A DNA stretch of 60,651 bases, counting the filler, from Hausera hauseri (Eukaryota), in assembly GCA_046269625.1 (NCBI GenBank). It is 11 parts of 11 records of this genome, joined end to end, with 100 filler letters (N's around TTAATTAATTAA, not from the genome) between each part and the next. Parts side by side here need not be neighbours in the genome. Positions count along the whole stretch, not along the records: positions 26,381 to 34,678 come from JBJURY010696548.1; 10 more parts are not named here. The stretch is one strand, 5' to 3'. Of the stretch, positions 26,381-56,749 are shown piece after piece. The notes below the pieces were generated by a model that searched no databases, was not told the origin of the DNA, and saw nothing but the letters and a program-made list of their open reading frames with translations. The first letter of the stretch is position 1. Each line of letters starts with the position of its first letter. Position numbers and translations under genes: made by a program.

Positions 26381-27045
26381 CGCTATTAGTTATGTAAGTA
26401 CTTTGAGAATAGCTAACGTAGCAAAAGCCAAAACAGTCGCAGAACGCAATGCTGCGGAAAAGGCGACTCTGCCAGATTTAGACGTCATGATGACAACTCA
26501 GTTAATAAATAGCATATGGTCAAAAGATCTAATTAAACAGTTAATTTTGGCCAGATCCGACAATTGTGAGAAAACGTTAAAATTAGCCCAAGACTTAGAG
26601 ATGGAATTGAAGAGATATGCCAAACAAGGTGATAAATATGGAAAAAATAATGACCGCAATAATCGAAATAGAAACGAGGACCAAGACAACAGATGATTTA
26701 ATGATAATAACCGAAGCCAAGGTTTTTATAATATGAACAGAAATCAAAAAGACAATAGAAATTTTAGTAATAAACGGAATACATTCAGCTCATATAATAA
26801 ACCGGGTTATAGTCCTGACAGGAATCAAGGCAGTTACCGACTAAATAATACATATACGGATAATCGGAATAATGAAAATAGATATGACGAAGATAACAGA
26901 CAAATATCACAAAACCAGAATAAAAATGTAAACAGATCAAAATCACCTTTGAATATAAATGGCCGACAAAGGATTGGCCGAAATGGGAATTTAATTTGCT
27001 TTACATGCGGTAAAGAAGGACATATTGCTAGATAATGCCCAAATT
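26381..27045 (+). pseudogene. gag: Gag C-terminus with N/R-rich linker and CCHC knuckle
   Basis: TLKLAQDLE; LICFTCGKEGHIAR*C; ORFs 26403, 26733 and 27084 share one frame. Confidence 0.85.
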
Positions 27046-29897
27046 TTAGAAGTGTCGCATTCACTGAACCAAACAAAACTAGTATGATTAAAAATAGCTT
27101 AGAAGCCATCAATGGTAAACGAGGTGATATAAGTATGATTATTGAAATGCAAGATTTGCGTAGGTCCGTAAGGAATCTAGGCGAAACTACTAATCCTGAA
27201 GTAATTAAGGCTAGAAAAGAATACGAAGAGAAATTACGGTTACTGGAAGTCTATCACGGACTAAGAGAACCACAAACCGAAGAAGAATATGCACTAGCAC
27301 AAAATAATACAAATATGGCGCGCAAAAAGTCTATTCCGCAACCAATAGCCCAGTCGGAGAAACAAACGGTATTTCAGATTGTAGATTTAGATGCAGAAGT
27401 CAAAAAATATAATCCAGACAAAACAACAGATGGAATTGAATGCAAATTTATTGGGCCTTCAGTTCTCAAAATAACGAAAAATAAGGGCAGAAGCCCATCG
27501 CCTAAGAGAAAATCTAAGACTCGCTCAAGATCTCCCATTAAAAAGGACGTGGAAGGAAAAGGAAACTTGTATACCGCTATCTTATTAGACTACTCGCCTT
27601 TAAATACGCCCGAAAGGACTTTAGAAACGTTGGAAACACCAGACATGATAAACATTAATAACGAAATCAATGAAATTTGTCCACTTCCCACTAGTGTGGA
27701 AGAAACGGAAGATGATAATAATATTGATGCAAAAAATGGAAAGTTCGACGTTCATGGAAGAATGCTGATGAACTAAAGAGAATAAGAATTAGACGTCACA
27801 ACCCGGAGGTACTCCGACACAATTTAGAAAGACTTAAACAGATCAGAAAACAAGCAGATATATCTGGTAAAGAGCAACAATTTGCGGAGAAATTATATAA
27901 AAATTTGAAATTATGCAGCGAAGGAAAGCTCGACGAAGCAATCGAATTAAGACAACCCGAAGAAGTGCCACGAGATACATTGATGAAATGAAACCATGAA
28001 TTAGAGTTATGAATTAAAAGTGGAATCAAATTTTCGGAAGGATGGAGTATAGACGAAGATAGTACCGATGTAAAAGCAGCTGAAGTTCAAACACTACTAC
28101 CGACCTTAGAAGCTAATCCAAAGTTGAAGAGAGTAGCCCGTAACTTAGAACGTAAGATGAATGAAACCCGTAATGCAATGATCAACCGGCTTAGAGAAAA
28201 ACTGGTTAGTATTCGAAAGGATACTGATTTAGAAATATTGGGTATATACCCGATAGATATTCCTCCCCTAATGGAGATGATAAAAATTGCCTTTACCGAA
28301 CCCTGACGGTATACGAATTTAGAGAATCGTATTAAAATGAAGAATGAAAGAAGGTCACAGATCAGCAGTTTGAGAAATCGAATTATGTTAGTGAATAATG
28401 AAGAAACCGGATATATAATAAAGGCATGCATCACAGAATTCGATGAATATAAGGATGAGTTCAACTATATTAGCCAGATAATAAATTTCATAAAGGGTCC
28501 AGATGACGAGCTAAAGAATGCATATAAGTTGCTAGACAAAGCAGTATTAGCAAAGCCAATAATAGCCAATCAATTGTCAGAATGGTCCGAACTAACAACG
28601 AAAGTAAGTAAATTAGTAGAAGACCGTAAGAAAGAATTTCCAGAAAGTGAACAGTCTGTAAAAAAGCAATTAGAAGAAAGTGCACGTAATTTAAATACTA
28701 TACAAACAGAGAAAATATCCAAACGCAATTTGAAGCCTTACGAAGGCTAAATTTTATGAAGAAGAAACAAGAAGAAATGATATTGGAAGATATATATATA
28801 AATGATCGAAGAAACAAACTTTACAGAAAAGCAAAATATGAGTTACAATTTTTACTCAAGATTAAGAAACATCCGACGGGAAGGATTCCAACATTTAACA
28901 GATAGACCTATTGACGAGATTTCAATCCAGGATATCGAAGCCTTAGATATTTGTCCAAAACATAGAGCAGCCCTAACAGAAGCAGTAAGGTTCTTACACA
29001 AACCACGAAAATGGATGGCCGGTACATATCAGAATTGTCATACCGAATTGACGAAAATAAGAAACAACCAACGTCTTAGTGTCGAAGAATCTAAGTTAGT
29101 AAAGAAATTGCTGGATGCAATGGATCCCGACTCAAAAGTTATAAATAAGATGTATGCGTTAGCCTACTTATTAGTAGAAATGGCGGCGATTAATTATGAG
29201 AATATGAGGCAATTGGTGCCCAAATTACAACAAGTTGAAGAAACGTGCATCAGAACGAAACAATGAGCAACAAGGTTAAATGAACTAGTAAAAGAGTTTG
29301 AAAGCTACAGGAACAAATACGCCTTTACGGAATCAGAAATTAAAGATAAGTTAATTTGTACAAAGATTGCAAAGGGATGTAGTTATGGAGCTAACCGATT
29401 ATCACCAAAAAGGATTCATCAATTCTAACGAGTTAGGCGAACTACTGAAAATGATTCAATATGCCTGTGGAAACGGAATAGGTTTCCGGACTACACAGAT
29501 GAAAGAAATACAACCAAGACTGAAAGAAATTTGAGAGAATGTACAGAGAACGAACGCAGCTTTATTAGACTACGGACTCCCAGAAATTTGGAATGAACCC
29601 CAATGGGATGCTTATTTAGAAGCAATAACGGCCGAAAATCCGTTAACTCCGGTACATCTAAACGAAAGAGAAATGTATCCGCAGAAGAGAAGATTCAATA
29701 TGGAAATGCTCCTGGACTCAGCGTTAACCGAAATATAATTGATTAAACTAATTAACGTAAAAAATTTTGAAAATAAGCTAAGACAACTTATTCCGACCTT
29801 CACTAAATTATCTAGTGAGAACACAATTTACAGCGCGGTGCCGAAACTTTTGATGAAGAAGTATGCGAACATCTTGGGGGCTAAGCCTAAGGTAACG

Positions 29898-30119
29898 ATG
29901 AAAGTAATGGTATCATCCGAGTGGATGGCAGAAAAGGAATGTAAGCTAACTACTTATTCCTACGTAAAGGACGTAAGAAAATGGTTATTATATAATGGCG
30001 GAACAAACGAGCTAAATTACAGATTTTACTTTAGAGAAAGAATACTCGACGATTTAGAACAGTTAATAGAGGTTGGAATTATTCCCGACGAAACAGATCG
30101 AACATTGGTAGTAATAGTC
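29898..30119 (+). other. Ubiquitin-like domain inside the retroelement polyprotein
   Basis: Gapless register with ubiquitin: M1, V23, V26, L30, G35, R42, F45, L50, D52, L56, I61, then TLVVIV. No terminal GG. Confidence 0.72.
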
Positions 30120-30298
30120 AATGAACAGAAAAAGGAAGAAGCCAAGCGTAAGGCTAAGACTGAACAATGTGTAGGGCAAATCATGAGAGTACGAGATGCT
30201 GCGATGTATTTTGAGTATTTACAAATGGATGAAGCAAGGAACAATACGATAAGAATTTAGTGCCATCGAGTGGAATAATGATTAATGTCCCAAGACCA

Positions 30299-30325
30299 AA
30301 ACGCCCAGTCGGTAGGCCTAGAAAA
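30299..30325 (+). other. AT-hook motif
   Basis: KRPVGRPRK. Confidence 0.55.
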
Positions 30326-30841
30326 GCCCGAGGAGAAGCGGACAACAACAGAGAATTGATTAGAGAATTGAGGCAAATGCCAATTTCCACTTTCAGTACG
30401 GATATTGAAGAATTAAATGAATTAATGAGAAATTTAATAGGAATCGTAAATTATTCGAGCCTTCGGGGAGACACATTAGATGAGAAAAAGAAAGCTATAT
30501 TTAACGCAGCTAGGACAATAAGAAGTTCACATTTCAAGTTATCCAAAAGTAACCCAACTGACGACGCAGTAGTTGAAAAAATTGTGGTGGAGAATACGAC
30601 AGAAGATCTAAGGAAAGTATTATTGTACTTGGCAATCAAGACAAATCCCAATCGAGAAAATGAATTCAATCGAGCTACAAGCTTGGCACGGAAAGCGGAT
30701 AGGAAGCTTTCCTGCAAAGTAAATTGCCCAAGATTATTTGGTAAGGAAGAAGAAAAAAGAACCAATAGCAACAGTAGGCTCGAAGACATCATACGTAACT
30801 TGACGACAACAGAAAATAACAACAGGAAAAATAAATCTAAT

Positions 30842-32944
30842 TGGTTAATTAGCTTACTCACCATAATGATGTTAATAAAACAGATGGGTGCTGTTACTTT
30901 CTACGACTGTGATAGATTTAAGCTTGGGCAAAAACATTCACTAATGGACTTAGAGGTATGTGAAGATAACAGATCACATAAATTGGAAACAAAGGAGAAG
31001 AGTTACTTCCTGTACCAACAACAAGAGTTGATATCTTTGAACGGCATGGAATGTATATTGAGACAATACCGTAGCATTTTCCATTGTGGATTAATGCATG
31101 TACGTTCCTCGATAATCAAACCGACGACTCCTCCAATTCCAATGAATTTGAAAAGATAACACTGCAAACAGGCTCGAGAGACCGAAAGACTAAAATGGAA
31201 TAGTATGGAACTAGAGATGCAGCCTGAAAAGATAATTAGAGCATATAAGATAGTAGTCGGCAGACTAGATATGCATAATGGGCAATGTAGCGGAGCAGAA
31301 TACGTCACCGGAAAAGGATTGGAAGAAAACGTAGTAGTAATAGACTTTTAAGAATCGGAAATGCGAGTCCAGAAAGTGATGTCCCATAGCGTAACTAAAT
31401 TATATACCGAGAATCAAAAATGTCACATACAGGACAGCACCTGTGATTTTGGAAGTTCTGTCGTAATATGGGAACCACCCGCTGGAAAAGGCTGTAACTT
31501 TATTAAGATTAAGGAACCGAAATTTACCGAGACTACCGGAAAACGATACATAGACAAATCCGATGTCAGTTCAAGACCACGTGAAGACGTACCAGAGCAT
31601 CATACACCTACGATATTAATCTCGGATCAACATGGGTTAAAATTCATAAAAAGGAAATGATTTTCCGTTGTAAAGTGGTAATGTCCACTACTAACTGTGA
31701 AGCGTTCATCGTCGCAGAAACGGAGATAAACGCAAAAACATACAACTTGGAAACGCAAGAAATTCGAATCGAAGATTATCTGAAAAACCAAGACGATTAT
31801 TTTTATTATAAAGGACAAGTCGGGATAGCCGAACTATACCACAACATGATAACTAATGATTGCAAATTGGATACGTAGATTATGAGGACAAAATTAGCTC
31901 TTATTTGTGCAAATCCTGAGCTAGCCTCACCGATTATTCCCATGAGAAAAGGAATCTTTGGTCGAGTTACTGGCGAAGTTCTACTGACATATGAGTGCGA
32001 GAAAAGAGACGTACCAATTAATGTCGAAGAAAAACGATGTATTCAAGAGCTTCCTATGATCTATGAGAATACTCCACGGTTAGCCATTCCCCTCAAGAGT
32101 ATTGCTAAACAACGCAACACAACCTACAATCTTAAAGGATTGTAAGACAAGTTTGGGTGAGCCAATGTTTAGACGTAGCCAAACAGATTGGATTAGCTTA
32201 CCAAATGGAGGTATCACGATCGTTCCTAAAAAACTGACTGGAACTAATTTAGCGAAAGGAATTACCCACGACAAGTTTCAGGATACGTCACAAAAGGGCA
32301 TTTGCAGACCCAAAGTAATCGAAGCTTTTAGACAATTTTTCGCTTTTCCACGGCAGCAAACACACGAATTAAACCGAGCAATAACATCAGTGGTAAATGA
32401 TACCCTTTATCAGGCTAAATGAGAATCTTTACTCGGTGCGAATCATTACCAACGGGTGACCACCGAAATACTCTACAAAATATGTGGAAGATTTTTAATT
32501 TTTGGACGAGCCGCATCTGGATTTTTAGCAATTTATTTCTTGATACAGTTAATAAAAGCAGTAATTCAGGCGGTTATAAATCGATATGAAATATTTACGC
32601 TAATTGGATTTTCTTGCAAGATTTTAACTACAATTATCACACCGTTCGGCAAAATTCTTAAAGCCTACGAAGAAAATGGGTGGAAAAATGACGTTGAAAG
32701 CCATGTCGGCTACCGTAATTACAAACGACGAGCAAGACCCACATTTCTATCGAAACGTAAGGATAACAAATTAACAACACAAAGAGATAAGTCCGATGAT
32801 GACGAGCCTAAGGGAGCAGAAGCAATCCTCAGACCAAATAGACAAAAAATGTATTCAGTAATTAAGTTACTTTTACCCACCATTCCGCAGACAGCTCCAA
32901 TATATGAAGACTGCGACAGAACATTTATGATGTCATACAAATAG
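30842..32944 (+). pseudogene. env: Chuvirus-like (class III, gB-related) envelope glycoprotein
   Basis: Signal WLISLLTIMMLIKQMGA|VTFYDC..SLMDLEVC..LYQ..C..RSIFHCG; GQCSG; VVIWEP..C; ELYHNMITNDC; GRVTGEVL..C..V.INVEEKRCIQELP; DCK..PMF..W; TM region FLIFGRAASGFLAIYFLIQLIKAVI..GFSCKIL. Confidence 0.85.
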
Positions 32945-33319
32945 GAAACTCATCGAAAACCCTTCAGCTATAAAGATCCTTGTGAAGGAACAAAACAATA
33001 CGGAGTATTAAAGAAAATGCAAATCACTAATCAGCGACGGGCGGAAGATGACCATAAAATATTGTACTCACCAAGAATAGCTCGTAATATAGAATCAAGA
33101 TCGACAGTTTGGGAAATATAAGGAAGGGAATCACTCCAAAACCCAATAATACAATAATCATTAATTAGAAACAACACAGGTAGCATAGAAATCAACAACT
33201 TATACCCTAACGAAGAAATAAAACAGTTGACCGAAAATATTATTTCATCACCCAAGATAACAATAAACGGACATAAGATTTCCTCAATTAAACGACCGAA
33301 GGACATATCGAGTTGTTAT

Positions 33320-33650
33320 GGAACAATTATGGAAGGAAGGCCCTTCACAAAAGTTACCATTGAGGACTGGGAAGTCTATGCCTTAATCGACACCGGATCA
33401 GAAAAATTGTTTAACAAATTAGAATCAATACCACAGACACTACGAAAACAACTGCAGCCGGCATCATCGTCAGATCCAAGCAGCATAGGAGCCTTCGGGC
33501 AAGAATCTAAACCGAAATTTAAGTAGAGTCCCTTATTTCAATTAAAGGGTCAAATCCTTCGACACGAGTTTGCCATAATGGGTCAAATAACCGATGATGT
33601 AGTGTTAGGTTGCGATATATTGAAACAGTTGCCCAATATCGCAATAAATT
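33320..33650 (+). pseudogene. Retropepsin aspartic protease
   Basis: RPFTKVTIEDWEVYALIDTGSE ... DDVVLGCDIL; same frame as the env C-terminus. Confidence 0.88.
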
Positions 33651-34049
33651 TACATACGGGAAAAGTGCTTGAACTCGGACCAGTGAAGGGGATTAAAACA
33701 ATGAAAGAAAGGAAACTAGGAGAAATATAGATCCCTGTCGACGAAAATATTCTGCCCAAAACCGAAATGCTAATTTATGTTTAAATCCGGGAAGAAGACG
33801 ACCAACCAGTATACTATGAGCCACAGGACGATGTTAACCCAAATATCATACTCAGTAACATTTTGACAAGAGTGGTGACCGGTCGAGTATTAATTAGGTT
33901 AGTGAATAATGCACAATCACCGTAAGGTTGTATGCCAATACTTCATTGGACCATACTTGTAAGGTATCGGCAATAACAATCGAAGAAAAACCATACAAAT
34001 ATGCTGAGTTTCCACCCCACGTTGAAACGAAGTTTTCACCAGAAGCATA

Positions 34050-34678
34050 TTGTCAATTTTATGAATTACTATGCAGATATAAATCGATTATTGCCCAAAG
34101 TGAACAGGATATAGGTAGAACAAAACCTTAAGGTTAACCATTCCATTAAAAAAGAAACCTGGTGCCAATGATGAAATTGATTTGGAAAAGCAAAAGATGC
34201 CTAAATGGCACCCATCGCCTCATTCACTAGGGCCCGAAATAACTAAATAGGTAGAACATATGTTTAAGACCGACATAATACGACCAAGTTACAGATTTTG
34301 GTACTCACGAATACTTATGGTCAAAAAGAAAGGCACCACTAAACGTAGATTCTGTATAGACTGTCGAGCTCTGAACACCCTTATGATGAAAGATTTATTC
34401 CCACTACCATCAGTAAAGGAAGCATTAGACAGATTATCAGGAGCAAAGTGGTTTACCGCGCTGGATTTACAATCAGAATACTGGCAGGTAGAAATCGGAG
34501 AAGACGATAGTTATAAAACAGCATTTAAAACGCACGGCGAAGTCTACAAATTTAAGATTATGCCATTCGGTATAACAACCGGCCCAGCTATCTTCACCAG
34601 AATGATGAATAAAATGTTAATTGGACTCGATCACGCGTTTGCCTATCTAGATGATGTAATGATAGCATCAAAAACAGA
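34050..34678 (+). pseudogene. pol: Gypsy reverse transcriptase, truncated by the linker
   Basis: DIGRT, IIRPS, RFCIDCRALN, FPLP, FTALDLQSEYWQV, KTAF, MPFG, AYLDDVMI. Confidence 0.93.
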
Positions 34679-34778: not shown

Positions 34779-37700
34779 AGATGTTTCGTTGCCATTATAT
34801 TAACAACGGTTTGCAATCAATCTGTATAACAAAATAATGAGCTGTAAGTAAATGGGAAAAATGTCCTAAAGCAAGAACGATTGCCAGCAGTTCCCAATCG
34901 AAAGTTGAATATCTAGTTTCGGGTGGTATTAATTTTCGAGAAAAGAATTCTAGAGGCTGGTTTTCGCTTTTATACAACTGATGTAGTACGGCGCCTACTG
35001 CGATGTTTGATGCATCTGTGGTAAAAATTAGCTCAGCGTCAGGCGTAGAAAATGCTACTATTTCAACAGTCTTTAGTCCATCGCGTAGCCTATCAAACCT
35101 GTTAACCAGTTGTGGTATCCACTGGATTTTCTGGTGTTTTTTCCTCCGCTTAAGTGTGCAAAAGTGCCGTGAGTTCCAAACAATATGGGATATATTTGTG
35201 GAAGAAATGCAAGGTGTTAAAAAAGCTGCGCATTTCTGTGGTTGTCCTATGTAGTTGGACGTTTTCAAGAGTCTCAACTCGATCAGGCTGAGGTAAATGG
35301 CCGTATGATGAAATAATATGTCCAAGAAAATTAACGTTTTTGGAAGAAGTTACATTTTGCAAAATTGATCTGTAGGTTGAACTGATAAAGTCGTTTAAAG
35401 ATAGATCGTAGATGTTCTTCGTGTTGTTTAACAGAAGAAGAAGCAACCAAGATATCGTCAATATATGGGTGTGCAAAAGGGAAGTCTGAAAGGATTGAAT
35501 CGACGTATCACTGAAAAGTCTGCGCAGCATTTCGGAGACCGAAAGGCATGTACAAGTACTGATAAAGACCGAAAGGTGTGGTAACTGCAGTTTTCTCGAT
35601 GTCTTCCGATGCGACAGGAAGTTGGTAGTATGCTTTGGCTAAATCAATTGTTGAATAAACTGTAGTCCTTCTCGTATTCTATCGAATTTATTGACTAGTT
35701 GTGGTGTCCACACGATTTTCTGGTGTATTTTTTTCCTCCGCTTAAATGTACAAAAGGTGCCGCGAGTTCCAAACAATATGGAATATATTTGTGGACGAAA
35801 TGCAGGGTACAGAGAAAACTGCGCATTTCTGTTGTTGTCTTAGGTAGTTGGACATTTCTAAGAGTCTCGACTCGATCAGGCTGAGGTATATGGACGTTTG
35901 AAGAGATAATATGTCCGAGGAAATTAACGCGTTTCTAAAAGAAGTTACATTTCGCAAAATTGATCTGTAGATTGAACTGGTTAAGTCGTTTGAAGATAGA
36001 TCGTAGGTGTTCCTCGTGTTGTTTAACAGAAGTAGAGGCAACCAAGATATCGTCAATATATGGATGCGCAAAAGTGAAGTTTGAAAGGATTGAATCGATG
36101 TGTCGGTGAAAAATCTGCGCGGCATTATTGAGACCGAAAGGCATATACAAGTACTCATAAAGACCAAAAGGTGTGGTAACTGCAGTCATCTCTATGTCTT
36201 CCGGTGCGACAGGAATTTGGTTGTGAGCTTTAGCTAAATCAATTGTTGAATAAACTGAAGTAGTATCAAGCCGATGTAATATGCCTTTGATTAATGGTAG
36301 TGGATATGCATCCATTATGGTTAAAGTATTAAGCTGGCGGTAATCGCCGCAAGGTCGGAAGGATCCATCCTTTTTTTGGACAACATAGATAGGCGAAGAC
36401 CATGGGGATTTAGATCTAGGCGCAATACCTGATTTTTCGAGTTCGAAAAATTCGCCTCTACTGCATGCCTGCGACGAGGTGACAATGGATGAACCTTTTG
36501 TTGAATTGGTCTTTGATGTCATGTAATTATATGGTGGTAAATGTCGTTTACAGGGGTGAAGTCCCGATCTTTCTGAAGTATACAAGGATAAGAAGTATGG
36601 ATGAATTGTTGTAAACTTGCGGTTAGATGCTGGAATGTTGTTAGAGACAGTGAACCAAGGTTGCTAACAGTACTTGGTATAATGTGGTTGGTTGTTGATG
36701 AGGAATCGGGTGGGATTTGGAGTAGGATGGTCTGGTCCGGAACCCTATTTTAGTGGGTGTTGTTGTTCAATGATTTTATTGAAAATACCAGATCGTGGAT
36801 GTCGACATTGATCTGCGATTGGCTGTCGACATTGTTCTATGGAAGCTTACGATGTAAAACGTGATAGTTATTGGAATTATAATGAGGTACTGACTGTTTT
36901 AAAATAGATTATCTACTTACTGTTAACTGTGTTGTCGTTGGGGTGTTGTGTATTCCTGTGCTACGGTCTACAGGTGTATTCGATTTCAATAAGCGGCGGT
37001 TACAATCGACTAGCAAATTATAGTGCGAAAGGAAATCGGAGCCAAGTATTGCTGTCTGGACGTTAGTGACTGTAAACGTCCAATGGAATGAAGAGGAAAA
37101 TTTTGGTAGCGTGAAAAATAATTTGAAAATTCCCTCAATATGGAGAGGTTGACAGGAGGCGGTGTATAAAGGTTTTATTTTAGGTGAAGAATGCTGAACC
37201 GGAAAAGAAAGTGGTAGAAGGGAAAAATCGCTGCGCCAGTATCGATAAGAAAGTCTAAGGATTGAATGTTAGGATTAGAGATAGCAGCTTTTAGTGTAAA
37301 GACTGAAAATGACGTGTGTCGGCAAGACGAATTAAGTAAGTTGCCTTTGCCAGAATCTGCCGAGAATACTGGCGGCAAAATCAGTTTTTCGGATTGGTGA
37401 GTTAGAATGGTTATTGTTAGAGAAATTGGAACGTCTATCAGTGGTGTAGTTATTGTTAGTTTTGTAGTTACAGCCGGAAATACAATTCCGAGCATTAGAT
37501 CCAAATTTTGCATTATAGATGCAAACTATGTTATCCGAGTGTAGATTCGGCGAATAATATCTACACCCTAAACAGCATTTATTTGCTTTGTTATTAAATT
37601 TATTGTGATAATAACATAAATGCCCGCGCTGGTGACGGTGTTCGATTTCTGGAAAGAGAGGCGAGGAAGCATTCCGTCGATGTAAGGAAAGGTCATTCAG

Positions 37701-38704
37701 CTTATCATTGATGGTGTTGATTGTAAGTTGTAGTGCCGCATTTTCGGCGCGTAAATGGTTCAATTGGTGTTCGACAGATGTATGACGTTGATTGTCGTCA
37801 GTCGTGATTGCAGCTGATATGATGGGCTGTGATTGTATTTGTAAAACTTCATGTGCTTTATCGGTCAATTCAGCTAGCTTATCTAAGGCTGTAGAATCTT
37901 CAACTACGGTAAGTAAAGTTCTAATTTGAATGTGTAATGCGTTAAGGAAATATCGTCGAAGTAAATCAGGGTTGTGTTCCTTGGTCACTCCTAGAGTACG
38001 TAAGCCAACAAGGTACGTAAGAAATCACTAGGTTTTTGTGTCCCCATTGCATTTTCATTAAAGAAGCGTTGTATTATCGAATCAATTGATGGTTCTTTCA
38101 GTTTTAATACAGCATTGAGCAATTGAGTATAAAGGTCAGGGTGTTGAAAGATGTCCAATAAGTTATGGATTGGGGCCTTTATGGAGTTTGGCAGAAGGTA
38201 AAGTAGATTATGGGCTTTGGATAACGAGTCTGTAATACCGTTGGATTGTAATCAGCGTTGATGTAAGTGGAGCCAAGTTTTGCCAGAATTTTCATTCAGA
38301 GCAATGTGGAGTGTAATTGTGGAATTTTTGTGAAAAGAGTTAGATTCGGCTGATGTAGGTGGATGGTTTGATTTGGGATAGTAAAGAGTGAATTTGGGTT
38401 TTGTGGTCACCTTATCTGTGATGTCACTGGTTGGTGAGGAAATCATACCGCCGCGGATTCTAGGGTGAATGTGTATACAGAGGTAGTATTGTGAGGACAT
38501 GATGTATGGGAGGTCAGTTAAAATGAATCCATTGTGAGTCAAATAGAAGTCATTGAAGGCGGTAGCTTTATGAATGAGATCATATAATTGTATTGTATCG
38601 ATACATTGTGTTATATGAGCGGTATGTATTAATTTATTATTAACAAAAAGGTGGATGGAAAATGACGGTGATAAACAACAAGCTGGGTAGTGTGGTATAT
38701 CCAC
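34779..38704 (-). mobile_element. CsRn1-like Gypsy element (UBL-gag-protease-RT-RNase H) with an internal RT duplication
   Basis: Gag MGTQKPSDFLR, LDKLAELTDK; CHCC motifs CYYHNKF..ANKC..GC and CIYNAKF..ARNC..GC; FLIDTGA; RPCGDYRQLN, MPFGL, PYIDDIL; TTDASN, PLEFFSRKL. Confidence 0.9.
38447..38656 (-). other. Ubiquitin-like domain ending RIRGG, directly N-terminal to the Gag Met
   Basis: IHLFVNNKLIHTAHITQCIDTIQLYDLIHKATAFNDFYLTHNGFILTD...LCIHIHPRIRGG|MISS. Confidence 0.75.
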
Positions 38705-38794
38705 ATATTTTGTCTCGTGTCTTGTAGCTGTTGAGTGAGCCGTTGAAAACGTGGTTCTACCCCGACCGGTCCCAATTATCGAGACAAGTTTAAT

Positions 38795-39156
38795 TCAATC
38801 AGTGAACACGGCCACAGGTGTGGTAAGACCCAAAGCTTTCCTTTTTGCAATCAACTCCATTACTTTCACGTCAAGGAACTTTTTGTATGCATCTAAAATT
38901 TTATCGCCTTCATGATCAATAACTTCATCTGAATCTTTATTTTTATCGAAATTTTTAGAATTAAAACACCAGTCCTTGTGTATATGTGGATCATCACCAA
39001 ATAATGCCGAGCCAAATATTAGGTCGGCTTCATCAAGACCTCCATCAAGAGTTATTGCAGCTATCACTGCTTCAAAAGCATCTGATCTGGCATGGGTGAT
39101 TGTTGAGTCGTATGATAAATCAGTATTATGAGTGTAGAGTAAAAATTTATGTAAAC
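38795..39156 (-). pseudogene. drosha: Drosha-like RNase IIIa domain fragment
   Basis: LHKFLLYTHNTDLSYDSTITHARSDAFEAVIAAITLDGGLDEADLIFGSALFGDD parallels Drosha FMLYAHGPDL...RHAMANCFEALIGAVYLEGSLEEAKQLFGRLLF. Confidence 0.78.
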
Positions 39157-39256: not shown

Positions 39257-40091
39257 TTTCGGTATTTTCTTATGGCGACGCCTTGCACAGCTAAGGTTTA
39301 TACAATTTTGTCTCATGTGCCCCTGCTGACCACATCCGTAGCATCTTATTGGTTATCTTTCGGGGCACTGCTTGTTTATATGTCCTTCTTTTCCGCATCC
39401 AAAGCATTTAATCAGCCCCCATGTGATGCAAGTTCTGTTCGTATTTCCTTCCTTCTGACGTCCAACACTTTAATCCACTATTTGGTGGTCTAGTTGCAGT
39501 CATGTTGGCTCTAAGAACAGGTTTCCTGATATTTCCAGTTCCCACTTCCTGGTAGCTTCTTCTACCGATCCCTTGATACTCTTTGACCGTGTTGATTTCT
39601 TCTGTCTTAATCTTTTCTTCGTGTATCCGTATTTTCTCCTTTATGGTTTGCGCGTCTTTTGTCACTGAGGCATATCTCTCTTCTCATCTTTTTACTGTTA
39701 CAACATTGGGACAATAGTTCCTCTTTTAGAGTCTCGCGTGAAAAATTGTGTTTCATAACTTTATCCAGCAGTTTTTCGATTGTCTCGAAGTCAGCCTCCG
39801 GGTCTGCTCCAATCATTTTGTACTCGAGTGCTTCTTACAGATCTTCGCACAGAGTTGGGGGTCTGGCGAAAGCTTTCGTAGTCGGTTTTGATATTCCGTT
39901 ATCTTCGCATCTACTGCCTCGTATCTTTGTTGTGCTTCTTCCACCAAGAGACATTCAACCATGATTTCCCTCTTTGCCGCTGGGGTGTTCACATATCTAA
40001 AGAATTTCTCACATCCCTTAGTAAACTTCTCCACGTCGTCGTCTTTCTTTGAACTTGTTGGGCAGAAATTGGTTAGTGAAAATATCCATTA
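39257..40091 (-). pseudogene. gag: Gypsy gag fragment
   Basis: VEKFTKGCEKFF...REIMVECLLVEEAQQRYE; frameshifted and rich in coiled coil. Confidence 0.55.
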
Positions 40092-40271
40092 TGGCGCAAG
40101 TTGCCATGTTAGCCGCGGGCGCGTCTACGCCGTCCACCTCGTCACCCAGCTTGGCTTGGGCTGAAAAATTCCTGCTCCTGTGTGTCAGCTAAAGCGGAAT
40201 TTGACCGTTTGCAATTACTCATTGAAAAGTTAACACCGGTTGTTGAAAATTTTATTATTGTCTTAAAATAC

Positions 40272-41015
40272 TCATTTCAAAACAAATTGGGCTGTTTTAA
40301 ACGTGAATCGTTTCCCGTATAGGTAATGGTTGAAATGTTGACAGAAATAATACATTGCCTGTAGTTCTTTCCGACTTATACAATATCCTTTTTCACGGTT
40401 GTTTATTGTGTGTGATCCGTACTTAATTACTCTCGCGCCACAAACTATCTTTCTGTGAGGATAATTTATCTGTAGAAATAAGGGAAACATAGTATTGGCG
40501 GTGTGATTAGAGCTCTTTTTATTGACTCCAAGGCCTCGTTACATTGCTCCGTCCATATTAGTTTCTTGTTATTCAGTCCGCATAGTTGCTGCAATGTCTT
40601 CGTCTTTGTTCCGTAACCTTGGATAAATCTTATGTAATAGTTGCAGATCCCTAAGAAACTTCTTAAATTCTTGACATATTTTGGTTTCTCAGAGGACTTA
40701 ATTGTTTCCTGCTTTGATGGGTCTGTCTGTTTCATCTTGTCATTCATTATATTTCCTAAAAATTTTACTTCTTTCTTGAGGATGTGACATTTCTCTGGGT
40801 TTACGCTGAGACCTGCTTCCCTGATCTGCTACAATACCTTCTCTAGTATCCTACAATGCTCTTATACAGCCTTAAAAATGATTAGTATATCATCTACGCA
40901 TACCACTGTTTGTTCAATGTCCCATAGTACTTTATTTATTAGTTCTTGGACGGTGCCCGCGGCTGCTGCTATACCAAATGGCATCCTTTTGAAAGAGAAC
41001 TGTCCTAATGTGGTG
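40272..41015 (-). pseudogene. pol: Gypsy RT-RNase H fragment
   Basis: FKRMPFG, AGLSVNPEKC, LRSFLGICNYY..FI, ITPPILCFP, REKGYCISRKELQA..FNHYLYGKRF. Confidence 0.88.
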
Positions 41016-41017
41016 CC

Positions 41018-43620
41018 CATAGCGTTGTACAAAAAAGAACTATACTTTTAGACCATGTGGTGACTACCGACAGTTGAAGAACTTGACCATCATGTATGCC
41101 TACTCCTTACCACTCATCAAGGCCATCCTACATCGCCTTAATTCAACTACCATATATTCGATTATCGATTTAGCCAAAGCATACCACCAAATACCGGTGG
41201 CACCCGAATACATAGAAAAAACCGCTGTCACTACTCCTTTTGGCCTCTATGAGTACCTGTTTATGCCACTCGGCTTGCGAAATGCCGCCCAGACTTTCCA
41301 GCAACATGTCGACTCAATTCTCTCAGATTTTCCATTTGCGCACTCTTACATTGATGACATTCTAATTGTTTCGTCTACGGTCAAAACACAAGGAACACCT
41401 TCGCGCAATATTCCAACGCCATCACCACCATAATCTCCAAGTCAATTTCGACAAATGCCATTTTTCAAAAAACGCATCAACTTTTTGGGCCACGTTGTTT
41501 CACCAGACGGCGACTCTTCGCAACCAGACCAAGTTGAAGCCCTTAAAAATATCCAGTTACCATATACGACCACCGAAATGCGCAGCTTCCTTGGAACACT
41601 ACACTATGTATGTATGTGCATAAATATGTACCATATTGCTCCGAATTGACAGCACAATTTGCACACTTAAGCGGTGGCAAAATATATTAGCCAATCCAGT
41701 GGACACCTGAGTTGGTAGACAAATTTGATAAGTTACGAGAAGGAATTAAGACCCAAGCCTGATGCAGAACTCATCCTTACTACAGACGCTTCAACCACTG
41801 CGGTAGGTGCTGTACTCTACCAGGTCTACAAAGGAGAATATCAACCGCTAGAATTTTTCGCTCGCAAGCTAGATACTCAACGTTCGATCGATAGTTATTG
41901 GTCATCGTTCTTGCTTTAAAGCATTTCTCCCACCTACTTGTCGCTCGCCATTTTACCATACAAACCGATCACAAACCCTTACTTAACATCATGACTATGA
42001 AACATCCTTCACACTCCAAAAACGACAGATATCATACTTTTTGACATTTAACTTCGACATAAAACATATTAGCGGGTTTAATAATTTAGTTGCTGATTTT
42101 TTATCTAGGTCGATTAGTTCGATTAATTTTTCACCGATTTTTACACAGGTTTAACTTCAACAGAATTAGCCACCTTAAGACATGTTTAATTCTTTCAAGT
42201 CTTGCACAATTGTTGATGGCGTGGCTTTAGACACTTCCAAACCAGGTCATCCCATAATAATTCTCGCACCATCATTGCAAAGGCAAGCATTTAGTAGTGT
42301 ACATTCGCTACACCACCCTGGTGCTAAAGCCACTTCTCGTTTACTCCATGGACAAGTAATATGGCCGACAATGCGTTCTGATGTGCAGGCATCGGTTAAG
42401 GAATGTGTGGCTCGCCAAAAATACAAAACAACTAAACATTTAAAGCCACAACTATTCCACTTCCCCTTCACATCGCGTTTCGAATCCGTGCATATCGACA
42501 TCGTTGACCCTGTTCCTCCAGACAACGGTCATCAATTCATTCGCACCATGATGGACCGTTCCTCGCGATGGCCAGAAGCCATCCCTCTGCGGAGCACGAA
42601 CACCGATACCATAGGTGACGTTTTCATTCGCACATGGATTAGCAGGTTTGGATCACCTCGCTTCATCATCACGGACCAGAGTCCACAGTTGGAATCCAAA
42701 CTGTTTAAATATCTTGTTAACCGATTAAGGATCCATCACATACATACTACGCTTTAACATCCCCAGTCGAATGGCCTCCCAGAACGCTTCCACCGAACAT
42801 TGAATATGTCACTAAGAATCGTTGCAGAGTCCAACACTAGTTGGACGAATCTTCTTCCGTTTGTTCTGCTTGGCTGGCGGGACACTCCGTCTACTTCTAC
42901 GGAATGCTCACCTACCGAAGCCTTATTCGGAGCTCCTGTACTATCATTGTTCGAACTAACTGCCCTAGCGACACACCTTCAGATGAAACGATACGGGCGG
43001 CGCAAAATCACTTCGGCACGGTCAGCAAAGATTTGTTCTGCAGGATACTTCACAAAGACAAAGCATATTTATCCGAAGACTTGTATTCGTCAAAATTCGT
43101 ATGGCTAAAAAATCAGACGCCCTGCGGTTTTCAGCCGCGGTATCTGTGGCCCTATAAACTGATACAGCTGCATTCACATAATGCTACTATCTCTAAAGAC
43201 GGCAAAAAATTTACGGTACATATTACCAACCTAAAGCCCGCCTTCTTCGTCGACGACACTGTACCAATCGACACGTCAAACCCTTTGCTCACTCCTAAAC
43301 TTCCTTCTATTCCTATTTCCATCGCTACACCTGTTCCACCTCCTCCTTCTGCTCCTAGTTCTGCTTTATCATCTTCCACGCCTTCTCCTTCTGTTCCTAT
43401 CCGCCTTCCTATCTCTACCATTACCTCTGTTTCATCTTCTACTTCTACTCTTCCGCCTAATACATTTCCAATTTCCACGACAACTTTCGTCGCCTCCTTC
43501 ATCCGCTACTTCACCTTTTGTCACTCCATTGTTTTCTAACACTCTCTTGAGTGCCTTTAACCATCCGTCTCCAACAATCTCTCTCCCTCCTTCACCTTCT
43601 TCTTCTCTTCATTCTGACTC
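41018..43620 (+). mobile_element. Gypsy pol (RT-RNase H-integrase) closely related to the 34779-38704 element, with an S/P/T-rich tail
   Basis: RPCGDYRQL, IDLAKAYHQIPV, YIDDIL, TTDAST, HSLHHPG, VHIDIV, DRSSRWPEAIPL, ITDQ, HPQSNGLPER, WPYKL. Confidence 0.92.
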
Positions 43621-46600
43621 GTCTTTACACGATACAACAATTACTACAAAATCTGACAAATTTTTCCCCAACTTTAACCTATGCTAGCAAATACCTCGCA
43701 TGCAGACAAACCACGCAGAGTCACATTTAGCATGTATAGCAGGGAAAAATCAGTAGAAGGCACCCAACGTCTTGTTCACACTAAGACCAGCTGACACAGA
43801 CGCTTTCCGTTTGGCGATTTTTTTTACCGTCTATTTTACCCTTCATAATTTCAACCTTGCTACGGGGGAATGATGTTGTGCCCACTGCGGCCGGTGCTTT
43901 TGGCCCATTTGGTTGGGCACGGCCGGGCATTCGCTGTTGCCGCGTCGGCTTAATAGTCGGGTCCAACTCTCCGCCTTATGAATTTAATCCGTCGAATTAG
44001 ACGATAAGATTATCCTTAAATCAGAACCAATACATACAATACTCATCTTTAAAGATGAAATCTATTCCACTCCATGATATAAACAGTAGCCGAGTAATTG
44101 ATGAGCCGTGCCTTTCAAATCACTGCATCATAAGACAGCGGCATAATCCCAGACAGAACGTTAATCCTTTGATGCCAACCCAAAATGATTCTGAAAGTGC
44201 TACGACAAATACAGATTTATTACAGACATACCTTCAAAATCTCATCACGAAACCTAATCGTCACAATGTTTCGAAAGACAATAAAATAACAACGCAACAA
44301 TTTAATTCAAAATCTTTCTCAAAGAAAGAAATAAGTCAGTTGATATATTTCCACAATTCTTCCCAACTGTATGAAAATGTAACAGTTCCAACATTAGAAA
44401 ATTTTGTTTTATCGATAAAGTATCAATGTTCTCTTTCCCGATGTGATATTTATTCATTTTGGTTGACCTTTCCACACCACTAAACAAATCATCGGATATA
44501 TCGATCGAGGAAAAATCATTTAAAAAGTCCACAACAGAATCCAATCCGAACTGAGTTCCGTTGAGCCGATTCAACGAACTTTATCCGCCGAAACTTTCCA
44601 ACAATTTCATCTTATTCTTTAACAACAACGTGGAAATTAATTGTTTAGTTTACTAATGACAGTGGTTTAAAGATGTCTTCAGTTTGTCATGTAGTGCTGA
44701 TAAAAACAGTCGTTGTCAAATATATAATTCTTGATCTTCGGTCGCAAGATTTTCGCAATTACTTTATCATCTATATCCTCAAAGTCAGACTCGAAGTGTT
44801 CGAATTTAAAATCATCCTCGTTAGGAAGCAACATCTACGGCGGTTTAGAAACTCGTTGGCAGTTCTCAGTCATTTCATTAAGACCCGATACCACAACCAG
44901 TTGTACTTTCTAGCCAATTCATCAAATAGCCATATTTATCGTTGTTCATTGGTGTTTAAAATGGTCGATCAGCATCCGTTGACATGAACAAATGGTAGAC
45001 AAATTTGATCTTCCTCGACAACACTCTTATTGTCACATTCCGATAGAGGCAGTGAAAAATATGTTTTCTCAGTGACGAATGGGCAATGTTCTTAGAAACA
45101 AAAAAATCCAAACATTTCAGATGTCGTTCCAAGTCCAAATTTCGGCTCAAGTTTTTCGTCTGATGATCAATAATAAAAACATGTGAGCCATAATAGTTTT
45201 CATACCGTCGATAAAATGTCTTCCAATCCACTCAAATGCCAACGAACAGAAGCCAGAAAACGTGGTCAAAGTGAAATAAAACGAGTCGTTGTGGTGTTGC
45301 CGGATTTGTTGACCCTTTTTGAGACATTTTTTAAAAGTGTACATAATGTTTTGTTTAAATAAAACACAATTTTGCATGTTCAATTTGATTTGACTTTAGC
45401 TTACGTCATATTTTTTTCTTCGAAGAAATCGTCTTTTGCTATTATCAATTATAACTGTCCATTTTTTAAGAATTTGTATCTCGATTGATTTTGCAACTTT
45501 TTTATACCAAATCGTTTATTGGATTTGGTCGATTTGTTGCGTACATATATAAGCATAACTATGAAAATTTTGAATTATTTATTCGAATACCATATTCAAT
45601 TTGATCAAATGATTTTAGTAACAGAATTCGAAATAGAAGGAAAATTTCTGTACGTTACCAGTTTANNNNNNNNNNNNNNNNNNNNNNNNNNNNNNNNNNN
45701 NNNNNNNNNTTAATTAATTAANNNNNNNNNNNNNNNNNNNNNNNNNNNNNNNNNNNNNNNNNNNNGTCAGCTGCTAGGTGTTGTAGTTCTTGCATAGGGC
45801 CTAAATTCATGATTTTACATTCACGCATGAAAGTTCTTCTTATTGTTTCTTGTGGTCTTCCTCTGTACTCGTCTGATCTAATATTCTCAAAGAAAATAGT
45901 GACTAAGTAACTCCTAAGGCGCCCTATCGAAACACTTTCCCCTCATGATAATTTTTAAACGCAGTACGCAAGTACACACCCGTTCGTCTGAACTTTGATC
46001 TGTCAGCATTTCTCAAGCCTGCTAACATATGATAAGCCGAATGCAGGCGGTTAATTTTCAAAAGAAACGCGTTCGGGAATGACCGATCATCACAACCATA
46101 CCTAACATTTATGTTAGCATGCTAACGTTGAGGAAATAGGCACTAACAGTATTGTCTAACGCTGCCTAACAGCGGTGTTTTTTTTCCTTTTGCAGTGGAG
46201 AGCTACTGGCCGTAAAATTCTCGTCGTTTACAAGATTTTTTAATTTCGTGTTTTAAATTTAACATTACATATTATATTCCTTTTATTTTTATATAATCCT
46301 TGTTTTTCTTTTTGTCAGCACTGCTAAATTTGTGAACATGGATGGCCGCCACTGGTTGCAGTCTATTTAGTATTATTTTAAGCATGACTTTGCTTGAGTG
46401 GTTGATGAGACTAATAGTGCGATAATTTTGGTACAGTTGCAGTAACGGGGTGATTATGCATTGAGTCCAATGTGTGGACCATTCTTTGGTATTTCATATT
46501 TTATTACAAATCTGTGTCAGGATTTCAATCATTGACTCTCCTCTAGCCTGAATACGTTCGGCTGGTATGTTGTCAGCTCAGCAATCTTTCCTTGTTTAAG

Positions 46601-49980: not shown

Positions 49981-50319
49981 CTTCCAAAACCTCCATCTTT
50001 GACCTGTGAGCCTAGTGGGACGATACAGGTCTCTTCTTAGGAACGGCAATAGAGTGTAGCGGATCATCATCATTAGTGCCCAAGACCTTTCAAGTCATCC
50101 TCTAGCTCGAACTAAACTACCTCCAATATCCTTAAGATATGCGACTTTAACAGAAAATTTACCCCTTCTATGACCAACTNNNNNNNNNNNNNNNNNNNNN
50201 NNNNNNNNNNNNNNNNNNNNNNNTTAATTAATTAANNNNNNNNNNNNNNNNNNNNNNNNNNNNNNNNNNNNNNNNNNNNATCATTGAGTTAAATCTCGAT
50301 TAATTTCATTTATATTTAG

Positions 50320-51602
50320 ATCTACCGGAATGTATGTTTTGCAGAGCCATTATCACTGAAGTGTACAGATTGACACCATGCCTACATATGGTCTGTTTAT
50401 TTTGTATAGAACAAGTTCGAATACGAGCCCATCCTACACCATACTGCCCTGTCTGCACATATGAAATTAAATACTGTATTCATCATAGTGCATACCCATC
50501 TGACGCTGACCAATCACTACTAGATGTCCCAACCTTCGATGTCATCGAACCTACAGATCATACTACCTATTACTACACCTGGAATATATCCACCCCTTTT
50601 TCTATTCCGAATTTTCAATTGCACATGTGTTGTTTATGTCAAAAACCTAATAGAATAACCTATCAATTTAGTTGTTGCAATGCCGAGTACTGTGCTCATT
50701 GCTATCAACTAGAATCCCATCATCGATACTTAATCTGCAGCATATGTAACTTTTGCCCCCAATTTATTTACGCATATTTCCACCACCCTAGAAGAGCTCT
50801 CCTTACCATTACTAACACACCAATTCCCCAAATACTTCCGACAAGATACTTCCGGTTAGAACAACAGGCATCAGTTAGAATAGAATTCCCAATTCATAAA
50901 TTTGACCCCTCTATAATAACCAGACTACCACCGATTGTTCTTCAAACACCTTTACCTCACATTAATGTTATGACTCTTTTACGACAACCATCTTCAATAC
51001 CACACCCACGCTATCATCCAGAACAAATTACTAGACCATTACCTGAATTGCCAGTACCAGTACCTACAATAATACCCACACCAGCTATTTCTTATAGCCC
51101 ACCATTACCAATATCTTTACAAGAAGATTGGTTTCCTGTCTACAGCAAATGTCCAATAGACCTTATTTCTGACCTAGCCCCTCCTGACTTATGGGCAACA
51201 CTACAATCTCACTACTATGACCAATTTCCCACCTACGAATGTACTATATGCCTTACCGAAAGAATAACAGTAGTTCAATTTCAATGCAACCACAAATTAT
51301 GTGCAACCTGTTTCAACAAACTTCGATCCCAATCTATCAAATCAATCGATCCGGAAGATGCTTTACAGATGACCTTTCAAAACGGCATTTCTTGTCCATA
51401 TTGCCAACAACCATCAGTATACTACCACTTCTATTACACCTACGACAACCGAACCCAAAGACTATGCCATTGGATGAACCCCGTGAACGATGCGACACTG
51501 ACAGTCAAACCCAGAAACCTCAGTTTCATTGATGCCAGTACTCAGAGTGATCCGGAGGACCGAATCCTTTTCAAAGGGGGGAGAAATGTTGAGACGCTTT
51601 AA
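50320..51602 (+). CDS. Intact triple RING-finger protein in the 3' accessory position of an LTR element
   Basis: RING1 ECMFC..CLHMVCLFC..CPVC, RING2 CCLC..CCNAEYCAHC..CSIC, RING3 CTIC..CNHKLCATC..CPYC. Pro-rich linker; no stops over 422+ codons; acceptor-like ttatatttag ends at 50319. Confidence 0.82.
51573..51586 (+). promoter_or_regulatory. Polypurine tract
   Basis: AAAGGGGGGAGAAA immediately followed by TGT, and preceded by GAGGAC....TTTT. Confidence 0.8.
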
Positions 51603-55600: not shown

Positions 55601-56005
55601 TCAAATGTGTTAGCCAGATTCTCTACTCCATCACTCACCCACGCTGAGAAGATATAATACCGCGAATGTGGAGCGACATTTGTGCATAATCAACACTAAG
55701 AAAAATGTAATTCAATATGATCAACAAAAAAGAGAGACGAAAGATTACATTAAAGTCTGACTGCTTGTTGTGTTGTCTTGTATCGGCATTTCCATGGAAA
55801 TGTTAGCGGTAACTTCGTTTCATGTTTATATTTTTGACTGAAAACAGAATGTAACCTATTTAGAACACTATTGTGTGAATATGAGTGTGTGTGTGTTATT
55901 AATCAAATTGTTGTAAAAATAATAATAGAAAAATCTAACTTTATGAGTGGAAATGAATTATAACTAGGATTGAAATTAGAATTATCTAGAAGCTTTTGTT
56001 TAAAC

Positions 56006-56459
56006 TGTTCAATAACGAAATGTGTTTAGCCTTGACTCTGATTGGCTGAAGTCAATTAGTATCATGTATATAAACTGACACTAAAATGACTAAAATTTGA
56101 AATTTTGCCTAACGCCAAGAACAATTCATTACCTACTGACAAGTGTAGCTGTCTAAGACCAGCCTAATAATATTTACAGCCTACTGGCTAGTTGATTTGA
56201 AGTTAATATACACAGCTTACAGGCTAGTTACTTAGAAGTCTTAAATACAAAATACAGCCATATGGTTAGTTTTAAGGAGACAATTTCACTTCTTTCTATT
56301 CTCGATAAAGTTGGATTTTTGTTTGCGCTGATTTACGTTTTCATCCTATTAGTTGTTCTGAACCTATTTGTATTGTTGTATCCAATAAAGTTCTGTTTAG
56401 ATAATTTGGTCTATTTGTGTCAACCCTCAGAATCATTCTAATATTTGGCACCTGAATGA
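56006..56459 (+). mobile_element. Putative 5' LTR plus degenerate tRNA-Lys PBS
   Basis: TGTT start, ATTGG box, TATATAAA, three ACAGC..A..GG.TAGTT repeats, AATAAA near 56384, then TGGCACCTGAATG (compare TGGCGCCCGAACAG). Confidence 0.55.
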
Positions 56460-56749
56460 ATTTAGGAAGGAGGAGTATAATAGTAAACAAATCGATATCA
56501 CAAATCTGGATTTAATTAAATCAGTTCTCGGGCATTTCAGACCGAAGAAATAATATTTCATTCATTTACCAGAATATACTTTTGGTTTCGAAAAGAAACG
56601 AGTCTACGACAAATCAATTTCAGGTCTCGCCTAAAAACAGAAACAAATCATACGTTTATTAACAACACTCGAAATTACTCCAAAAGACTAAATTGTAATT
56701 TGTGTAATAGAAAAATTATAAAAAACGATTTCACACCATACACTATCAT

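Follow-up and report, generated by a model that had tools for sequence, protein, structure and literature searches.

A decayed Gypsy-type element of Hausera hauseri with a gB-type envelope glycoprotein between Gag and protease

Layout and state of the element

The window, a stretch of 60,651 nucleotides of Hausera hauseri DNA (GCA_046269625.1) joined from 11 parts, contains at positions 26381-34678 a single contig (JBJURY010696548.1), the 5' end of which lies inside Gag and the 3' end inside a reverse transcriptase (RT). The domain order along the contig is Gag knuckle, spacer, signal-like stretch, gB-type envelope glycoprotein (env), transmembrane (TM) region, protease and RT, and the Ty3/Gypsy trait of a CCHC-bearing gag located 5' of protease and RT is present. 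No LTRs are visible on the contig, both ends of the element being absent, and no internal repeats of at least 40 nt are found within it. The features are as follows.

26381..27044, plus strand: C-terminal part of Gag, start lost at the contig end, with an Asn-rich region and one CCHC knuckle (PF00098); two isolated stops
27045..30841, plus strand: lineage-specific spacer of ~1,265 codons with few stops in its open frames; the frame switches three times, and stops cluster at one place
27728..27776, plus strand: first frame switch, of -1 sense; a slippery-type heptamer lies in frame here, and the switch reflects either decay or a programmed frameshift
29883..30149, plus strand: likely ubiquitin/SUMO-like domain, common to relatives (profile and Atlas matches)
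30842..30892, plus strand: internal signal-like hydrophobic stretch (hydropathy) with a small-residue site at its end, followed by YDC, the conserved start of env
30893..32509, plus strand: class III fusion glycoprotein ectodomain of Monjiviricetes/chuvirus/gB type (PF24664, Cys); two frame switches and four stops
32510..32660, plus strand: env membrane anchor region (hydropathy), main peak 32510-32554, weaker from 32591
32661..33331, plus strand: linker between the env tail and the protease, all in one frame, with three stops
33332..33631, plus strand: retroviral-type aspartic protease (PF00077), DTG at 33389
33632..34118, plus strand: protease-RT linker, matching that of relatives, where Burro has a dUTPase-like domain
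34119..34678, plus strand: N-terminal half of RT (PF00078), ending just past YLDD at the contig end

The copy has suffered considerable decay, with 24 stops and 7 frame switches (at ~27750, 29350-29425, 30245, 31630, 32100, 33915 and 34125) across 2,830 codons followed in eight pieces, and with a stop cluster at 28748-28801. The other two plus-strand frames of the same pieces hold 526 stops, a contrast which is partly circular since the pieces were picked as the most open frames; the Pfam matches are free of this circularity. The ORFs at 32102, 32456 and 33227, placed in one frame by the earlier note, do share it and the env tail is in frame with the protease, but the reading of the tail into the protease is interrupted by stops at 32942, 33119 and 33155. 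Given the seven switches, the stop cluster and these three stops, a single ORF is unreadable from this copy alone, and the copy itself is unable to encode a product.

The CCHC knuckle suspected near 27000 was recovered at 26997-27044 (PF00098, E 3.5e-6), with one stop within it, and the coding stretch of ~3.8 kb said to follow it corresponds to a knuckle-to-signal distance of 3,797 nt with few stops. No Pfam family reaches its cut-off in the spacer, and the late-domain motifs PT/SAP, PPxY and YPxL are absent from the six pieces scanned. Judged from sequence comparison, positions 29883..30149 likely specify a ubiquitin/SUMO-like domain, which is likely an accessory module. The segment matches the pre-env region of the relative P0054 (iE 9.5e-7 among 11 sequences), its ESM Atlas neighbours are ubiquitin and Rad60-SLD (0.87-0.90), and the best PDB matches of a profile of such segments (A4) are ISG15, ubiquilin and SUMO1, with E from 0.001. 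The segments were chosen by eye and the scores are modest: in a search with a profile from four relatives' segments the present segment ranked best, yet with an iE of only 0.25, while it gave no ubiquitin-family Pfam match alone and the ORF no phmmer match in the PDB. A single-sequence AlphaFold model of this ORF (pLDDT 33.8) was given no weight. Another relative, P0014, has a weak Bcl-2 match (E 0.00096); for a BCL2-like domain in the present element a three-sequence profile gave no match and the Atlas no named match.

Of all 11-residue stretches in the six pieces scanned, that from 30845 is the most hydrophobic (Kyte-Doolittle 2.82), followed by that from 32522 (2.50), in agreement with the internal signal (30842-30892) and the TM region (~32490-32660) noted earlier, the latter with a peak at 32510-32554 and a weaker one from 32591. 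That the signal has no separate gene start is not strictly established, as three Met codons lie within the hydrophobic stretch. Between signal and anchor, the Monjiviricetes fusion glycoprotein family PF24664 is matched by three successive frame pieces at profile positions 6-227, 248-407 and 416-602 of 653 (E 5.5e-15, 1.8e-14 and 4.9e-17), so that the profile runs on uninterrupted over two frame switches. The Cys pattern of the ectodomain is likewise retained: all nine Cys in the first piece and four of the six in the second align with Cys of P0007, P0008 and the protein of the metagenome locus L001. In an env model of P0014 (mean pLDDT 77.6) all top PDB matches are herpes gB (E from 5.8e-14), with TM-scores of only ~0.3, and a relative's env model is closest to the glycoproteins of Tacheng tick virus 4 and chu-like viruses; together with PF24664, this bears out the chuvirus/gB-like assignment made before. 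No furin-like site is found within the ectodomain. Env identity to the nearest database relatives is 22-38%, and the element is one further, divergent family in a published, little-studied group with a class III fusogen inside the Gag-Pol frame.

The protease DTG at 33389 (PF00077, E 4e-4; 21.0 bits against a cut-off of 20.7), where it had been reported, and the YLDD of RT, near 34644 (PF00078, E 1.8e-22), are both confirmed. The linker between them matches that of P0020 (iE 2.3e-10) and, weakly, the equivalent linker of P0007 and P0008, and has no dUTPase match in Pfam. RT identity is 45-51% to relatives with env in frame versus 30-44% to nine other Gypsy RTs. An RT search also returned seven ordinary Gypsy proteins lacking env, which served as controls in a tree of 17 rows, built free of Bel-Pao, Copia or named references, where the grouping with env-in-frame relatives has weak support (50/67).

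Relatives and other copies

Relatives were collected by a full HMMER search with the env tail and protease as query, a query that favours fused proteins; env and protease occur in one stop-free protein in 12 of the 36 env-bearing database relatives and in 11 of the best 13. Queried with the env-tail/protease piece, a word index of longer proteins gave no match. The relatives are collinear with the element from signal through RT, and a signal-like stretch precedes YDC in all ten polyprotein relatives covering the env start. Gag or CCHC is also part of the env-protease protein in P0008, P0015, P0016 and P0018, and is absent from the called protein of five long relatives (P0007, P0011, P0012, P0051 and P0054). 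The locus L001, found with alignment A2 among at least 593 pattern matches, has one frame of 3,426 codons from spacer through env to integrase, with its 5' end cut off and no LTR-like repeat; the A2 search in viral contigs gave no match. The order RT-RNase H-integrase is seen in P0007, P0008, P0051 and P0054, beyond the point inside RT at which the present contig stops. Stand-alone glycoproteins also exist (P0026, P0036 and P0038; 659-709 aa) and have their own N-terminal signal.

Contigs of run X1, 10,281 in number, cover the element in each of 30 bins; X1 may be the source of the window itself, and the longest contigs listed are 219-295 nt, none spanning the element. Over the spacer, too, every one of 30 bins has contigs from other copies. 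Copies lacking the env block would have spoken against the arrangement, and among the 15 joints listed, of 17 in these contigs, none skips env. As read from 40 of 232 rows, the stops at 32942, 33119 and 33155 falling outside these 40, the copies vary in length at six of the seven frame switches, each time in a way compatible with an unbroken frame, and the breaks therefore look copy-specific; among those listed, no length difference is found at the switch near 32100. Nine of the ten places with listed length differences coincide with breaks of the present copy, and at four of the six isolated spacer stops at least 98% of contig depth reads otherwise. At several switches, contigs that differ in length contribute less than half of the depth: ~20% at an env-internal switch and least at the Gag/spacer switch (two contigs, ~4%).

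One polyprotein and its alternatives

Taken together, these data probably reflect a decayed and truncated copy of a multi-copy Ty3/Gypsy element in which Gag is followed by the spacer, a gB-type env, protease and RT, and the intact form of which likely makes all of them as one polyprotein, as in Burro. A common polyprotein for Gag, env and protease-RT, as previously proposed, is the most likely reading in view of the stop-free relatives and of breaks that are not common to all copies. The case for one frame running from gag through env into protease draws on the frame common to env tail and protease, on breaks that differ between copies and on the stop-free relatives, and is weakest at the Gag/spacer switch. 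It is here that a different form of expression deserves some, if little, credit: Gag may end near 27776, with a programmed -1 ribosomal frameshift giving a minor Gag-spacer-env-Pol fusion and setting the Gag:Env:Pol ratio. The switch has the -1 sense and an in-frame slippery-type heptamer within a 16-codon overlap, only ~4% of depth varies in length there, and the called env-Pol proteins of five relatives are without Gag. However, with heptamers of this type at 14 of 2,806 codon places, the chance of meeting one in a stretch of that size is ~8%, RNA structure downstream is absent (z 0.11), two contigs of other copies do vary in length at the switch, and Gag and env share one frame in four relatives.

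Less probable still is a single DNA frame from which env, with Pol joined to it, is mainly produced by a spliced or internally started message beginning at or near the signal, so that env is never cut from Gag by signal peptidase. Spliced env messages are known from gypsy-type elements of Drosophila, and the three Met codons of the signal-like stretch would suit an internal start, but four relatives hold Gag, spacer and signal in one stop-free frame, a continuity for which an env expressed on its own would have no use. That env came to lie between gag and pol pieces of separate origin, through two elements placed side by side or one inside the other or through an assembly error, is very improbable, even though the source assembly is repeat-rich and fragmented and the contig, devoid of LTRs, is not spanned by any single record. 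The absence of repeats of at least 40 nt, the coverage of all bins and the lack of listed env-skipping joints all argue against such an origin, as do the identical order in 12 stop-free relatives, the indication of the same relatives by env and RT, and the module which the spacer has in common with them. On these grounds a nested insertion was rejected; the reading of env as the 3' tail of an element lying upstream was rejected too.

Described elements and a possible membrane-threaded polyprotein

The element at 26381-34678 is a decayed further member of an already described element type. Sacco and co-workers are said to have described, in 2022, nematode-restricted elements (NERVs) with a continuous gag-env-pro-pol ORF. 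Env 5' of pol, as in the present element, is a property of these non-canonical nematode ERVs also as cited in PMC13524379. The architecture, regarded as possibly undescribed in the earlier note, is confirmed but not new, as PMC6431247 and PMC13524379 have the layout in published form. According to the former (Arkhipova and Yushenova 2019), Burro/GYPSM1 are giant gypsy-like LTR retrotransposons of planarians whose env, a homologue of the fusion glycoproteins of mononegaviruses, lies between gag and pol in the same frame, termed the first such case. Judged from this published description, the similarities extend to a CCHC Gag, a long spacer with a Ubi2/SUMO-like domain, a mononegavirus-type env in frame, protease, RT and a multi-copy state, and in Dugesia japonica, too, some copies are said to have decayed through stops and frameshifts (PMC6431247). 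Unlike Burro, which has two or three knuckles, one knuckle is seen here. MATH, BIR and ankyrin domains, which are variable among Burro elements (PMC6431247), have no Pfam match on 26381-34678, where the 3' half of the element is absent, and a BCL2-like domain, in Burro placed immediately 5' of env, is not detected either.

A second set is found in PMC13524379 (Chary and Hayashi, eLife), with GAG-ENV-POL Ty3/gypsy 'errantiviruses' of HSV/gB type in Nematoda, Bryozoa and Platyhelminthes; for one Schmidtea element, the copy number given there reaches 215. Gene order, gB-type env between signal and anchor, and multiple copies are shared with the present element (PMC13524379), whereas the set was selected for intact ORFs and its elements are intact, unlike this decayed copy with its broken frame. 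The PF24664 family is also that of chuvirus and of chuvirus-type env in BEL/Pao elements (PMC13524379), but these stand-alone glycoproteins have their own N-terminal signal, while env is here embedded in the Gag-Pol frame. Chuvirus-like glycoproteins adjoin gypsy pol in 114 arthropod elements (PMC13524379), and chuvirus-type captures are thus not mainly a Bel-Pao matter, contrary to what had been held before. In the available part of PMC13524379, gag, env and pol are handled as ORFs and a membrane-threaded single polyprotein is not discussed.

In such a polyprotein, Gag and spacer would be made in the cytosol, and the internal hydrophobic stretch, to judge from its sequence, may act as a signal cut by signal peptidase, which would free the YDC N-terminus of env in the ER lumen. 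The env anchor would then stop transfer and leave env tail, protease and RT on the cytosolic side, where the element's own protease could free the enzymes and trim Gag. Gag would at first be tethered to the ER membrane via the signal remnant and Pol via the env anchor, and both tethers may gather capsid, enzymes and fusogen at one membrane for budding. Decayed and truncated, the present copy is a poor subject for the threading, cutting and dosing of a polyprotein of this kind and changes nothing alone. More speculatively, and with low probability, these elements might be flavivirus-like infectious enveloped retroelements, with a polyprotein that passes through the ER membrane several times and is processed by signal peptidase together with the element's protease, and with a gB-type fusogen ahead of the protease and a post-integrase type I attachment partner as a two-glycoprotein entry set. 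In a limited search of the literature on such elements, as far as it was available, no mention of a second membrane protein past the integrase was found. Signal-like and anchor-like stretches ~240-350 residues apart follow the integrase in P0007, P0008, P0051 and P0054, all four of the relatives reaching so far, in a region beyond the end of the present contig. Judged by eye, stretches of this kind are also present after the integrase in L001.

Domain order, decay and copies of the focal element

The window is made up of 11 short contigs with spacers of the form N44-TTAATTAATTAA-N44 between them, and the focal Gypsy-type element occupies one contig (26381-34678), both ends being cut off. When the frames of this contig were read singly, with stops written as X, and searched against Pfam, the following domains were found in order:

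26997-27044, CCHC knuckle
Three consecutive pieces, Monjiviricetes fusion glycoprotein (profile positions 6-227, 248-407 and 416-602 of 653)
Thereafter, retroviral protease, then reverse transcriptase (RT)

The top two hydrophobic stretches in the six pieces scanned are located ahead of env (30845) and at its end (32522), and the protease lies in the same frame as the env tail, three stops separating the two. An env placed between Gag and protease-RT, with its tail in the protease frame, had been proposed in the earlier note, and is borne out by the Pfam matches, the hydrophobicity and the frame reading. The focal copy is dead. It contains seven frame switches and one stop cluster, and its pieces, selected for openness, hold 24 stops in 2,830 codons, compared with 526 when the plus strand is read in its other two frames.

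Between Gag and env, a spacer segment (~29883-30149) matches a module common to the database relatives P0008, P0016 and P0054 and to L001, a metagenome locus, in which it is placed before env. In the ESM Atlas the segment falls near ubiquitin and Rad60-SLD clusters (0.87-0.90), two unnamed clusters ranking higher (0.91), and a five-row profile of the module retrieves ubiquitin-like chains from the PDB, ISG15 and ubiquilin first (E from 0.001). The segment has no match above any Pfam cut-off. A BCL2-like match occurs in the relative P0014, and such a domain was sought in the window and not found.

Other copies are represented by contigs of sequencing run X1, possibly the window's own source, which contains 24% of the sampled words. 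In total 10,281 contigs map to the stretch, covering 30 of 30 bins, with identities of at least 99% (660), 95-99% (2,350) and 90-95% (7,271), and transitions make up 171 of 232 difference places. The listed pieces are shorter than 300 nt, none spanning the element, and among the 15 joints listed (of 17) none skips env, the longest skip being 441 nt. As the contigs extend across all bins with graded divergence, the element as a whole, with its env, forms a family of many diverged copies.

Relatives and the class of env

A HMMER search of 1.84 billion representative proteins, with a query biased towards fused proteins, gave 37 matches, all domain-scanned, of which 36 carry the fusion glycoprotein family (PF24664). 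The protease lies within the same stop-free protein in 12 of these 36 (11 of the best 13), P0015 being counted on a sub-cut-off protease match and a DTG motif. Three such proteins (P0007, P0008, P0009) extend into RT, and Gag or CCHC is found at the start of P0008, P0015, P0016 and P0018. The cluster members P0051 (4,844 aa) and P0054 (3,003 aa) run from env through integrase, as does L001 in one 3,426-codon frame. A signal-like stretch directly precedes YDC, the conserved env start, in 10 of 10 polyprotein relatives that include it. The focal RT shares 45-51% identity with env-in-frame relatives, compared with 30-44% for nine Gypsy RTs that lack env, and the env-in-frame rows group on one side of a branch in the RT tree (support just 50/67).

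The env cysteines align with those of three intact relatives in the first (9/9) and second (4/6) pieces, and P0014 aligns across the entire focal env (E 7.8e-61). The structural evidence for the class of env comes from the model of this relative rather than of the focal protein (mean pLDDT 77.6, pTM 0.45); every top match of the model in the PDB is a herpesvirus gB (E from 5.8e-14, with TM-scores of ~0.3), and among viral models it comes closest to glycoproteins of chuvirus type (E from 5.7e-38).

A continuous gag-env-pro-pol ORF was reportedly described by Sacco et al. in 2022. The layout of the focal element is already known: in planarian Burro/GYPSM1 elements env is placed, in frame, between gag and pol (PMC6431247). 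The focal element is another member of this known kind. It works like a Burro-type element and may belong to Burro proper. PMC13524379 describes Ty3/gypsy elements of gB type with GAG-ENV-POL order in Nematoda, Bryozoa and Platyhelminthes as non-monophyletic, citing Sacco et al. 2022. The ankyrin matches of P0051, which also has C2H2 matches, are reminiscent of the ankyrin repeats of Burro, the planarian giant gypsy-like elements. DTG-type motifs of repeated protease-like domains occur at five (P0016), six (P0051), three (P0007) and two (P0018) places. The database entry of the Gag-env-Pol polyprotein P0008 (HBK71150.1) reads hypothetical protein and assigns it to a Flavobacteriaceae MAG, which probably reflects eukaryotic contamination.

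Reading frame and predicted topology

Both env-internal switches must be decay, because the Pfam profile and intact relatives cross them uninterrupted. At six of the seven switches other X1 copies have a different length, every time consistent with an unbroken frame, and nine of the ten places with listed length differences coincide with breaks of the focal copy. At four of six isolated spacer stops at least 98% of depth has another reading, among the 40 of 653 rows listed, which take in these stops and not the three ahead of the protease. Counting against a single frame, few of the other copies differ in length at certain switches, the share being ~4% (two contigs) at the Gag/spacer switch as opposed to ~20% at a switch inside env. 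The low Gag/spacer share, the -1 sense of that switch and its slippery-type heptamer would fit a programmed -1 frameshift after Gag, a live but rather improbable rival, as such heptamers are frequent in the element (14 of 2,806 places) and no downstream RNA structure folds after the switch (z 0.11). Production of env-pol from a separate message is likewise live, though about half as probable, and a chimera is very unlikely.

With domain order, families, copy number and one-frame relatives established, the topology of a single polyprotein would leave Gag-spacer in the cytosol, the internal signal would be cleaved by signal peptidase, the gB-type ectodomain would enter the lumen, followed by its anchor, and protease-RT would be cytosolic, freed by the element's own protease.

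In L001 (8870-10279, +) and at the C-termini of P0007, P0008, P0051 and P0054, the frame runs on after integrase. This tail, in which 240-350 residues separate a signal-like stretch from an anchor-like one, is predicted to be another membrane protein of type I. The tails of P0054 and L001 are clearly homologous; the region has no relative in the PDB, and in Pfam weak membrane-segment matches alone. These post-integrase frames of relatives, lying beyond the end of the focal contig, underlie a bolder and rather improbable reading, in which the polyprotein would be multiply threaded with two glycoproteins. A separate 496-aa ORF 3' of the polyprotein (L001:10617-12107, +) matches exonucleases of RNase T type (E 1.4e-5) and is possibly an accessory gene of the element.

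Other contigs of the window

The remaining contigs carry fragments of Gypsy, Polinton-type and eukaryotic genes. Together with a CpG o/e close to 1, these make an invertebrate animal the likely host. Another Gypsy family is present in two copies (34779-39156, -, with an internal duplication of ~590 nt; 39257-45665, +), whose RTs are 65% identical to each other and far from the focal RT. Polinton/adintovirus-like fragments of dUTPase and protein-primed-type DNA polymerase B lie at 409-867 (+), 2801-3517 (-) and 11409-11981 (-). Intron-poor host-type coding sequence at 15674-19634 (+) comprises DUF4457 (KATNIP-like, E 1e-35) with a dDENN-domain gene close behind, both interrupted by frame switches and stops; they may stem from processed copies, gene capture or faulty assembly. 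In an unbroken 432-codon frame (50304-51602, +) there are several zinc fingers of RING type, and its middle is rich in Pro. A long, A-rich, decayed coding region (54787-60651, +) has Gag-like and, by eye, ubiquitin-like stretches; in a tblastn comparison with a threshold of E 1e-3, nothing in it matched the focal contig. The contig at 20313-26280 has a CpG o/e of 0.39, versus 0.77-1.18 in the other ten, and may derive from another compartment or organism.
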